NCBI GenBank assembly: GCA_964589765.1
Contig: CAZPUM010000002.1
Coordinates: forward strand, 4,147-30,834
DNA from: an uncultured Methanosarcinales archaeon
GTDB taxonomy: Archaea > Nanobdellota > Nanobdellia > Woesearchaeales > UBA525
Length of the DNA: 26,688 nt
Direction of reading: 5' to 3'
This document shows, in pieces, positions 19,933 through 22,623 of the stretch; within the stretch, counting starts at the first letter, position 1, and each line of letters begins with the position of its first letter. A program made the translations under genes and the position numbers. The notes below the pieces were generated by a model. The model made no database searches, had not been told where the DNA came from, and saw nothing but the letters and a program-made list of their open reading frames with translations.

Positions 19933-22623
19933 ATGAAAAGATTCTCTACTGCTACTGCACTTTGTAGTCTTGTTCTTGCTAGCACAATCCCATTAACAAA
20001 TAACAATACAGCATATGCGGTAGAACCAACAAACATTGTTCAAGAAAAATCTCAAGAACCCCCTATTGAACCAACAGACCCCGTAACGCCTACAACAGGT
20101 GAACTGACACCAGAGCAACTTGACGAGTATCTTGAAGCGCTTGAAAAGAGTCAAACCCAAGGGTCAAATGATGAGAACACCCCGAAAACATTCGCAGGCG
20201 AAGTCACTGTTGAAGGAAACATCGAAAAAACCAACGAACAAACCTTGCTTGACGCACGAAAGAACTCCGCTATCGTGAGCGACTCAATATCCTCTGAAGA
20301 AATAAGCAAAAGCCCAGACTCCAATGCCGCAGACACAGTCCAGAGACTGACAGGCATCACCATTCTTGGAGATAAATATGTGTTTGTCAGAGGTTTGGGA
20401 GAACGGTACAGTGGAAGCACCATCAATGGTTCAATCCTGCCCAGCACTGAGACTGAACGTCGCGTTGTACCCCTTAATCTTTTTCCATCAAAACTCCTCG
20501 AGAGAATAGACATTATCAAAACATATACTCCGGATATGCAGGGGGATTTTGGTAGTGGCATAGTACAGATGAAAACCAAAAATTTTCCAAAAGAAACCTT
20601 ATTCTCAATCGGACTGGGTACTGGCATAAACAGCTCAGCAACAGGCCAGGACTTTAGAACATATGCGGGCGGACTTGATATACTAGGCAGAGGAGGACAG
20701 AAACTTCCCTCAGGCATCCCTACAGAATATATCTCAAGAAGAACAGCCCTCAATCCCGTAGGGTACACTCCCGAGGAAATACAGGCTTTTGGGAGGCTCA
20801 TGGTTGGAGACTGGACAGGAACTGAGACTAGTGCACAACCCAACACTAATTTTTCTCTTACATACGGAGATACAATCGGCAGACTCGGTCTGATTTTCTC
20901 AGCCACTTCAACCAGTGGATACGAATCGATTGATGAAGAGTTGCGCTTCTTCAGTCTAGACTCAAACACGCTTGTTCCTCGAAATAATTATGAACTTGTT
21001 ACTGATAAAGAAAACGCCCAATTAGCAGGAATCACAAGTATCTCCTTTAAACTTAACGACGACCACACTCTATCATTCGATTCTTTTTACACCAAGAACT
21101 CCTCAACAGAGAACAGAGTACAGGAAGGGCTCAGTACAAATAGTGGAGGATTCATTAAAGATTATCGAGTAATGTTCAAGGATGAGCAAGTCCTCTCAAC
21201 AAAACTTTCTGGTAAACACAACTTTTCGTGGCCTGGAATTGCAAGTCTTCTGGAGTGGCATGGCTCAAAAGCGACAGCAACCAATAATTCTGATTTAAGA
21301 GAAAACCTTTACAGCATGGGTGCTCAAGGGGTATATTCTCTTATGACTGGTTCTCCTGAAACAGGAAAGATGGAATTCTATGACCTTGAAGACAACACGC
21401 AAGAGTTAGGTATTGATTACACTGTTTTTTTCTCGCTACCGAAAAACGCATATGGTTCAATAAAAGCAGGGCACCTACACATGAATCGTGAGCGTGGTTT
21501 TGAAGCTAGACGATTGCGCTTTGTTGTTCAAAACCAGACTCTGTTTGATCTCACTCAAATGCCAGAACAACTTTTCACCCCTGAAAATATCAGGCCAGGA
21601 GGTTTCGAGCTACGTGAAACAACAGGAGTAAATGACGCGTACGACGCCACACACACCGTAACTGCAAGTTATCTGATGGCAGATATAAACATGAACAAGT
21701 GGCGTGTAGTGGGTGGGGCTCGCATGGAAGATTCAAACCAAAACGTGGTTACATATAACCCGTTCAACACAGAGACAGGAGTTATATCAAGCGAACAAAG
21801 CACCGATGTCCTGCCATCACTAAACATTATTTACCGGTACTCACCTAACACAAACTTCAGGGTTGCGTATTCAAGGTCCGTTAACCGACCTGAGTTTAGG
21901 GAATTGAGTCCCTTCACTTTTGTTGAAGTCACTGGAGGAAGATCCATTGCTGGTAATCCTGATTTAAAACAAGCCACTATTGACGCCTATGACCTTCGAT
22001 GGGAAACTTTTCCTAGCCAAGGTTCAGTAATCGCTACAAGCGCATTCTATAAAACAATCCAAACCCCTATTGAGCGCATTATACAGCCAACAACCGAGCT
22101 CCGCACATCATTCGTGAATGCTGACCAAGCAACACTTATGGGTGGGGAGATAGAATTAAGACACTCGTTGGATGTTTTGGGACGTGTTTTTAAGAACTGG
22201 TCTGTAAATGCAAATTACACATACACAACATCAGAAGTGAGTATTGGCGACCAACAGTATTCAGTAACTACAACGTCAAACCGTCCTCTTATGGGACAGT
22301 CTGACCATGTGGGAAATATCTCACTTCAATATTTTAATCCTAGATGGGGATTTATGAGTCGGGCACTAATCACACATGTTGGTGAGCGCATAACAGATGT
22401 CGGTTCTTTCGGGCTTCCTGATATCAAAGAGAGCCCTTATACAACATTTGATATTGTTATTTCACAGGACCTGGCCAAGATAGCAAAAGGTCTTTCTATG
22501 AAGATTGCTGGTCACAACTTACTCGATACCGAACGAATTTTTACGCAGGGCAACGAAATACAGCGAATTTACAGTCCTGGACGCGCGTTTAGTATAGGAC
22601 TTAGCTATACGCCCCCGTGGTAA
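19933..22623 (+). CDS. TonB-dependent outer-membrane receptor (bacterial type), 896 aa
   Basis: The Sec signal peptide is [29 protein letters not shown]. The plug domain (about nt 20230..20577) reads [86 protein letters not shown]. A long beta-barrel region follows, ending in the aromatic terminus ...[14 protein letters not shown]. A strong SD, GAGGTGA, lies 5 nt upstream of the ATG. Confidence 0.85.
   Translation: [896 protein letters not shown]

Follow-up and report, generated by a model that had tools for sequence, protein, structure and literature searches.

Probable old acquisition and maintenance of a bacterial TonB-dependent receptor gene by a woesearchaeal (DPANN) archaeon

How does an intact gene for a TonB-dependent receptor (TBDR) come to lie between archaeal genes, and can it be of use to the cell that carries it? 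The question is raised by an open reading frame (ORF) at positions 19933 to 22623 (plus strand) of a 26,688-nt stretch of contig CAZPUM010000002.1 (assembly GCA_964589765.1), which is referred to here as the window and which was deposited as DNA of an uncultured Methanosarcinales archaeon. Beta-barrel outer-membrane proteins (OMPs), as well as the beta-barrel assembly machinery (BAM) and the TonB machinery on which they depend, are considered characteristic of diderm bacteria and of the organelles that descend from them, and to our knowledge none of the three is established in archaea. An earlier note, made from the sequence of the window, had described the ORF as an intact bacterial-type TBDR between archaeal genes and had offered three explanations, namely horizontal transfer with retained or repurposed function, a recent transfer that has not yet decayed, and a chimeric assembly. 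The description is borne out by Pfam, by a fold search and by synteny, and the first explanation is the one that our data support. We consider it probable that the TBDR gene is a genuine chromosomal gene of a member of the Woesearchaeota (DPANN), which was transferred from a bacterium to the archaeon long ago and has been maintained under selection. That its specific role is TonB-independent and exerted in the envelope is a much more tentative proposal.

The ORF is uninterrupted across 896 codons, and its product was confirmed as a full TBDR. Both Pfam families that had been suggested as a check with hidden Markov models were found above threshold, the Plug domain (PF07715) with 39.7 bits (cut-off 23.9) over aa 112-205 and TonB_dep_Rec_b-barrel (PF00593) with 121.4 bits (cut-off 27) over aa 375-863. 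OMP_b-brl_3 (PF14905; 93.7 bits) also exceeded its curated threshold, and the top NCBIfam model was TIGR01782 ‘TonB-Xanth-Caul’ (269.9 bits, E = 5e-80), with an alignment reaching the C-terminus. Since neither plug nor barrel was matched when the PDB was searched by sequence, where the sole match was NOMO, to the N-terminal domain of the homologues, a fold search was needed. The AlphaFold2 model, which was built on a shallow alignment of 26 sequences, has a mean predicted local distance difference test score (pLDDT) of 69.7 and a predicted template modelling score of 0.71; its first 99 residues are of low confidence and mostly coil, and its barrel is confident (pLDDT about 80-88 over aa 220-896). 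When this model was compared with the PDB by Foldseek, the top 50 matches were all TonB-dependent transporters (TBDTs; FoxA, FecA, Cir, PhuR, FhuA), with a probability of 1.00, E-values of about 1e-21 to 1e-16 (best 5e-21) and template modelling scores, normalised to the target, of 0.5-0.66. The full-length barrel with an aromatic C-terminus that had been read from the sequence thus agrees with PF00593, with the modelled barrel and with the protein end ...SYTPPW.

The TBDR gene carries the signature of the host genome itself, and this goes beyond mere similarity in GC content. Its GC content is 0.434, that of host genes and segments 0.39-0.46 and that of the nearest bacterial gene 0.666; at third codon positions the GC content (GC3) is 0.377, compared with mostly 0.36-0.45 in host genes (0.53 in the gene for the TATA-binding protein, TBP) and 0.905 in the nearest bacterial gene. 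The distance to the host genes in relative synonymous codon usage (RSCU) is 0.077 for the TBDR gene, 0.069-0.111 for long host genes and 0.335 for the nearest bacterial gene. Long ORFs of similar GC3 from other genomes lie at a distance of at least 0.129, and none of 32 is as close as the TBDR gene. Likewise, the tetranucleotide distance to the rest of the window is 0.0135 for the TBDR gene and 0.0130-0.0179 for host segments, while segments of similar GC content from other genomes are at least 0.0195 away (0 of 121 as close) and the nearest bacterial gene shows a distance of 0.078 to the whole window. The comparison sequences of similar GC content were mostly from Woesearchaeota. The impression, gained previously by eye, that the composition of the ORF resembles that of its neighbours therefore holds quantitatively in GC3, RSCU and tetranucleotides.

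On both sides of the TBDR gene the contig is archaeal and specifically woesearchaeal. The TBP of the window is 74-88% identical to the TBPs of metagenome-assembled genomes (MAGs) deposited as Woesearchaeota, Nanoarchaeota and Nanoarchaeia. Other archaeal-type genes of the window encode RNase P p30, Memo, a PP-loop/TIGR00269 protein, whose named relatives are Woesearchaeota, and an S4/pseudouridine synthase. The SAMP2-like protein matches PF21965 with 30.5 bits (cut-off 27) and the SAMP2 model NF041919, and the 1192-aa gene upstream of the TBDR has the TATA box aaatatatttaaac approximately 25-38 nt 5’ of its ATG. Thus, the archaeal character of the flanks that the earlier note had claimed stands with TBP, SAMP2, RNase P p30, Memo and the PP-loop protein. 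The SAMP-like gene and tbp, which had been placed in this order downstream of the TBDR, are both present; however, the SAMP gene is on the minus strand and convergent with the TBDR.

The gene order Memo, HATPase-like, S4/PseudoU, Rpp30, PP-loop, large secreted protein, a slot of variable content, SAMP2, Cys-rich protein and TBP is common to the window and the related loci L002 (a soil contig of 192 kb on which MCM, PolD and eIF-5/eIF-2B-family genes are found as well), L003 and L009, and it is partly kept in L004, L005, L084 and L086. Homologues of the 1192-aa protein hold the equivalent position in L002-L005, L009 and L010, large proteins are found there also in L084 and L086, and the position of SAMP2 relative to TBP is conserved in L002, L003, L084 and L086. 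The slot is filled by the TBDR gene in the window, by TspO in L002, L003 and L009, by a 127-aa gene in L084 and, in both L004 and L005, by unrelated genes (among them a MazE-like and a nucleotidyltransferase gene in L005), and it is empty in L086. When the same locus was inspected in related genomes, as had been suggested, no TBDR was present in any of 82 related TBP-centred loci of Woesearchaeota and Nanoarchaeota, and the genes called in L084-L086, where the closest PP-loop relatives lie, did not include one either. The lineage from which the window originates is thinly sampled, the closest relative of its PP-loop protein being 68% identical (on a 1-kb contig) and the others 63% or less, and therefore the absence of the gene in relatives says little about the time of acquisition.

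Two further observations concern these flanks. The Cys-rich protein of about 110 aa is zinc-ribbon-like with CxxC motifs, gave no credible Pfam or NCBIfam match and is located directly upstream of TBP in many Woesearchaeota, being found at the equivalent position in L002-L005, L009, L010, L031 and L072 among others. In addition, approximately 26 of 80 GTDB-representative contigs with a TBP 72-88% identical to that of the window bear the title ‘uncultured Methanosarcinales archaeon’ (for example L004, L010, L018, L019 and L023) and one is titled ‘bacterium’; such titles look like placeholder or wrong taxonomy.

The closest relatives of the TBDR are bacterial. Among 5.8 billion proteins, the best match other than the protein itself was P0002, with 62% identity over 90% of the length, encoded on a contig of 69% GC with genes for RND efflux, OEP and porin proteins and thus in a bacterial context. 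The next matches are approximately 50-57% identical, and many of them are named TonB-dependent receptors of Thermoanaerobaculia or Acidobacteriota. A phylogeny of the best matches, which had been proposed as a check, was calculated by neighbour joining and places the TBDR of the window as sister to P0002; its branch has a length of 0.31 substitutions per site and that of P0002 0.17, a ratio of about 1.8. The longer archaeal branch represents accelerated change, far from neutral decay. Three bacterial loci have a Beta_helix_4 gene downstream of the TBDR gene; it is split in L087 and intact in L001 and L088, and in the latter two a CHRD gene comes after it. In L087 and L088 a response regulator gene precedes the TBDR. 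Genes for PhoX, a phosphodiesterase, phosphate-binding proteins or a porin are located nearby in L001 and L088, and the cassette hints at scavenging of phosphate or organophosphate. A tblastn search of the window for remnants of the response regulator, the Beta_helix_4 and CHRD proteins or a displaced TspO returned only noise (E > 0.2).

The comparison with the gene of P0002 yielded a proportion of synonymous differences (pS) of 0.934 and a proportion of nonsynonymous differences (pN) of 0.256. A proper dN/dS cannot be obtained from these values, since the synonymous sites are saturated. Nevertheless, several features suggest that the gene is apparently maintained by purifying selection. The reading frame of the TBDR contains no stop, and the other two forward frames contain 45 and 71. 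Out of 260 alignment columns that are invariant in 25 bacterial homologues, 236 are kept in the archaeal protein; of the 24 that changed, four are in the lost N-terminal domain described below, and most of the others show conservative exchanges (R>K, D>N, I>V, F>Y). The overall shift from A, R, V and G to I, K, N, T and M is as expected for a protein adapting to a genome of lower GC content. In the predicted barrel strands the conserved positions are kept at fractions of 0.91 (hydrophobic), 0.92 (polar) and 0.92 (aromatic), the corresponding values for P0002 being 0.95, 0.92 and 0.90. Judged by this predicted strand pattern, the TBDR still has the design of a membrane-embedded barrel.

The protein has not diverged evenly along its length, and decay is found mostly at the N-terminus. 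The first residues (MKRF...) align with the signal peptides of the bacterial homologues P0006, P0008 and P0080 (MKRFF...ASAQN), so that the N-terminus looks like a Sec signal peptide homologous to the bacterial ones, as the earlier note had proposed. What that note had overlooked is that the CarboxypepD_reg domain common in the homologues is lacking. Nearly all full-length close homologues carry it as an N-terminal extension of about 80 residues; in the archaeal TBDR, where Pfam gave no match to PF13620 or PF13715, its place is taken by about 55 P/T/E/Q-rich residues of low confidence (aa 30-84, pLDDT 23-40), which are 23% identical to the family consensus, compared to 50% in the sister P0002. 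The segment GEVTVEGN, formerly taken for the TonB box, is indeed the positional homologue of the family motif (FAGEVTVEG against FGETVEVVA), but it has diverged from that motif: three of 12 columns agree with the consensus, compared to seven of 12 in P0002, and these columns have a conservation of 0.83 among the other homologues. The beta-strand character of the segment is kept. In the plug, the identity to the consensus is 0.69, the same figure as in P0002. At the other end, ...LSYTPPW corresponds to ...LSYSP-F of the homologues, with the aromatic end kept and one residue inserted before the terminal aromatic residue, and the last 12 residues match the consensus at 0.45 compared to 0.64 in P0002. 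In bacteria, the TonB box contacts TonB and the C-terminal beta-signal contacts BAM. Two of the three diverged regions are therefore parts that touch the periplasmic machinery, and the changes point to a decoupling, which given the few columns involved is suggestive only.

The boundaries of the gene were searched for bacterial and archaeal signals. Two TATA-like boxes (Table 1), located in the 159-bp divergent intergenic region that the TBDR has in common with the 1192-aa gene, could constitute an archaeal promoter; comparable A/T-rich boxes are present 25-35 nt upstream of the starts of host genes in the window, and a sigma-70-like site was not found in the region 19774-19932. The Shine-Dalgarno-like GAGGTGA is compatible with translation by the host, in which the three kinase-like genes, the PP-loop gene and the TBP gene are also led by a Shine-Dalgarno sequence, but an archaeal signal cannot be told from a bacterial one by it. 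At the 3’ boundary there is no bacterial-type intrinsic terminator, and two oligo-T runs in the convergent spacer are possible archaeal termination signals. We found neither meaningful direct or inverted repeats flanking the TBDR, as would be left by a mobile element, nor a relative of the TBDR in IMG/VR that would point to a viral vector.

These data also bear on the possibility that the gene arrived recently from an unsampled low-GC diderm bacterium and is still undecayed, although functionless in the archaeon. Such a history would explain why the TBDR is unique to its source genome among the sampled relatives, and why it occupies a variable slot which, as the MazE-like and nucleotidyltransferase genes of L005 illustrate, takes foreign genes. 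The strong Shine-Dalgarno sequence is equally bacterial-like, and with the nearest bacterial homologue just 62% identical, the true donor lineage is unsampled, its GC content included. However, the match in codon usage and tetranucleotides is better than that of any sequence of similar GC content from more than 80 other genomes, related Woesearchaeota included (0 of 32 and 0 of 121, respectively), and so close a match is unlikely after a recent transfer from an arbitrary low-GC donor. Further, no bacterial promoter or terminator, remnant of a partner gene or scar of a mobile element was detected at the locus, and in a lineage whose closest housekeeping relative is 68% identical, absence in relatives does not imply recency. 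Together with the pS of 0.93 and the remodelled N-terminus, the signature leads us to disfavour a recent transfer, and we regard it as unlikely.

The protein could also still do what it does in bacteria, that is, import a substrate across an outer-membrane-like compartment, in the archaeon or at a cell-cell interface, with energisation by a TonB-ExbBD-like system. In favour of this, plug, barrel, hydrophobic belt and terminal aromatic residue are conserved, a TonB-box-like beta-strand motif (EVTVEG) is still at the right place, and the substrate might be related to phosphate, in view of the PhoX, phosphodiesterase and phosphate-binding proteins that adjoin the bacterial homologues. Yet the protein has lost its N-terminal extension, none of the conserved segments has diverged more than the TonB box, and the window lacks the conserved bacterial partners; among its proteins no TonB, ExbB, ExbD or BAM-type family was found either (Pfam with 24 ORFs, NCBIfam with nine proteins). 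Moreover, the DPANN cells characterised so far are known to possess a single membrane and an S-layer, and beta-barrel OMPs are not known to be established in archaea. We give canonical function a slim chance only and consider a repurposed, TonB-decoupled role more likely.

A mis-joined bacterial fragment, suggested by the otherwise bacterial distribution of TBDRs and by the origin of the sequence from a single metagenome-assembled contig of 82,909 bp, is very unlikely, its chance being close to negligible, because it would require two precise joins in intergenic spacers with archaeal synteny intact on both sides and an insert with GC3 of 0.377 and a host-type signature instead of the approximately 0.9 of the bacterial relatives, and because the TBDR is 38% diverged from anything known, whereas a co-assembled bacterium would normally show in the databases.

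The favoured reading, an old and maintained acquisition, can be put as follows. The gene would have passed long ago from a diderm bacterium, whose nearest sampled relatives are the high-GC bacterium with P0002 and the Thermoanaerobaculia (Acidobacteriota), to the archaeon by horizontal transfer. It would then have been ameliorated to the codon and tetranucleotide signature of the host; the CarboxypepD_reg extension would have been lost and the TonB box would have diverged, with signal peptide, plug and barrel retained. The match in signature, the saturated pS of 0.93 and the N-terminal remodelling argue for such a long residence. At present, the TBDR may be expressed from archaeal signals and exported by the archaeal Sec system with cleavage of its signal peptide, and purifying selection may keep it as a beta-barrel of the envelope or surface that works without energy coupling by TonB. 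Candidate activities are those of a plugged or gated channel or of a ligand-binding surface receptor, and candidate locations of the barrel are the envelope of the archaeon itself or the outer membrane of a Gram-negative bacterial partner. It is tempting to speculate that a 22-strand plug-and-barrel transporter of bacterial outer membranes has been domesticated by a DPANN archaeon and is used without TonB. The barrel could be located in the envelope of the archaeon, or it could be delivered to a Gram-negative bacterial host, in whose outer membrane it would serve to conduct nutrients or to attach the archaeon, but this is a doubtful part of our proposal.

Several points weigh against this reading. 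We know of no route by which a 22-strand barrel folds into a membrane in vivo without BAM. The 1.8-fold longer archaeal branch also fits some relaxation of constraint besides compositional adaptation, and part of the divergence, including the loss of the N-terminal domain, could have occurred before the transfer, in an unsampled bacterial donor. The gene is known from one MAG only, and since no orthologue above 62% identity exists among the 5.8 billion proteins, selection is not measurable within an archaeal clade. The comparisons of TonB box and C-terminus comprise about 12 columns each. Last, in the AlphaFold2 model, with its shallow alignment, the plug is of low confidence, and we did not take this region as evidence in either direction.

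Table 1. Positions of the TBDR gene, its parts and its neighbours in the window, and of the corresponding cassette in bacterial loci.
Feature	Position	Strand	Basis or remark
Divergent upstream neighbour, 1192-aa secreted archaeal protein; left synteny anchor	16195-19773	-	Leaderless-type TATA box
Two TATA-like boxes, putative archaeal promoter of the TBDR	cactatatagcaaa 19875-19888; aaactatatatcc 19895-19907	+	Read from the sequence
Shine-Dalgarno-like GAGGTGA	19923-19929	+	3 nt before the ATG
TBDR homologue, coding sequence	19933-22623	+	896 aa plus stop, ATG start
Putative Sec-type signal peptide	19933-20019	+	aa 1-29, ...AYA-VEP; cleavage site by eye
P/T/E/Q-rich segment	20020-20184	+	aa 30-84; mostly coil, in the position of CarboxypepD_reg
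Diverged TonB-box-equivalent segment	20185-20223	+	aa 85-97; aligned to PAFGETVEVVAEA of the homologues
Plug domain	20224-20577	+	aa 98-215; PF07715
Beta-barrel	20578-22620	+	aa 216-896; PF00593, PF14905, pLDDT, Foldseek, strand pattern
Two oligo-T runs, possible archaeal termination signals	22652-22656; 22677-22681	+	110-bp convergent spacer after the stop
SAMP2-like ubiquitin-like protein, ending ...VISGG; right synteny anchor	22734-22940	-	PF21965, NF041919
Cys-rich 110-aa protein between SAMP and TBP	23147-23479	+	tblastn, 14 related loci, matching relative position
TBP	23807-24382	+	PF00352, 204 bits; archaeal marker, synteny anchor
Bacterial TBDR cassette	L001 10001-15929; L087 8001-12561; L088 7207-13763		Recurring gene order

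The window contains further genes of interest. Five ORFs on the minus strand (four in 357-2972, one at 8948-10264) encode proteins with class-III (type IV pilin/archaellin-like) signal peptides, in which a short basic N-terminus is followed by RKAQ, RKGQ, MKGQ, SKGQ or RGGQ and then by a hydrophobic helix; none of the five has a Pfam match. They are interspersed with genes for giant secreted proteins, one of 1289 aa and another of 752 aa that contains a CarboxypepD_reg domain, and the group resembles an archaeal pilus or surface-appendage gene cluster. With large secreted and type IV pilin-like proteins as neighbours, the TBDR is located in a cell-surface neighbourhood, which fits a surface role without proving it.

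A second lineage-specific insertion is the minus-strand gene at 12554-14686, between the pseudouridine synthase and Rpp30 genes, which interrupts the synteny with L002 and had no tblastn match in related loci. It encodes a cysteine-rich secreted protein of 710 aa with Stig1-like, MopE metal-binding and CarboxypepD_reg motifs and a weak match to the model of the anammox S-layer glycoprotein. Downstream of TBP, three tandem overlapping genes on the plus strand (24423-26665) encode small protein-kinase/RIO/APH-like proteins of 266, 238 and 252 aa without tblastn matches in more than 80 related loci; at this position, related contigs encode a 333-aa protein, a peptidase S9-like protein and MCM. 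Directly after the TBDR, an 80-aa ORF with a TTG start (22640-22882, plus strand) overlaps SAMP2 in antisense and is most likely spurious, having no homologues and no Pfam match.

The identification of this gene is important for several reasons. TBDTs are well known, and so is gene transfer from bacteria to DPANN archaea, but the literature searched describes no outer-membrane beta-barrel transporter that is maintained in an archaeon, and it reports no TonB-dependent receptor or beta-barrel OMP for DPANN or Woesearchaeota. The host signature, together with the retained plug, barrel and membrane-facing pattern, implies that the TBDR is useful in or for an organism thought to have no outer membrane. 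If it acts in the envelope of the archaeon, it would be the first case of a beta-barrel membrane protein at work in an archaeon; if it is delivered to a bacterial host, it would provide direct genetic evidence for a life of some Woesearchaeota on bacteria. Either case would raise the questions of whether such barrels can fold and function in archaeal envelopes or on their surface, whether Gram-negative bacteria are targets of some DPANN archaea, a speculation that goes back to the murein-degrading proteins of the latter, and what a TBDT does when it is severed from TonB. Should the protein turn out to be inactive, the case would still serve to calibrate the time for which a foreign ORF can stay intact in a reduced genome.

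A comparison with known systems helps to place the archaeal TBDR. With the solved TBDTs (FoxA 6i97, FecA 1kmp, Cir, PhuR and FhuA) it has, according to the model, the plug-in-barrel fold in common, but the sequence identity is just 9-15% and the siderophore and haem substrates of these proteins are not transferable to it. With 269.9 bits for TIGR01782 the protein falls short of the curated cut-off (310 bits) and is therefore not a certified member of the TonB-Xanth-Caul subfamily. As to its genomic history, many protein families of bacteria are present in Woesearchaeota, and some of these archaea have been proposed to have bacterial hosts (Castelle et al. 2021, PMC8204110). Small-genome Woesearchaeota and Pacearchaeota have large extracellular proteins with murein transglycosylase domains and may be episymbionts of bacteria (PMC8204110). 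The lateral acquisitions described in that work are like the TBDR in that a bacterial gene resides in a DPANN genome and has adapted to it; they are, however, cytoplasmic, biosynthetic or cell-wall-degrading (sigma factors, GroEL, DnaK, the methylerythritol phosphate pathway, murein transglycosylase domains), and an outer-membrane beta-barrel or TonB-dependent receptor, as found here, is not mentioned among them (PMC8204110).

The nearest known counterparts are P0002 and the TBDRs of Thermoanaerobaculia and Acidobacteriota with a CarboxypepD_reg domain (P0003-P0120), which are 50-62% identical over part of the signal peptide, the plug and the barrel. They have the same Plug, TonB_dep_Rec_b-barrel and OMP_b-brl_3 architecture and 236 of the 260 invariant columns in common with the archaeal protein. 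The CarboxypepD_reg domain is present in nearly all of the full-length close homologues and the cassette in L088 and partly in L001 and L087, whereas the archaeal copy is without both and has a diverged TonB box. Unlike these bacterial relatives, it is written in the low-GC codon usage of an archaeon and resides on an archaeal chromosome.

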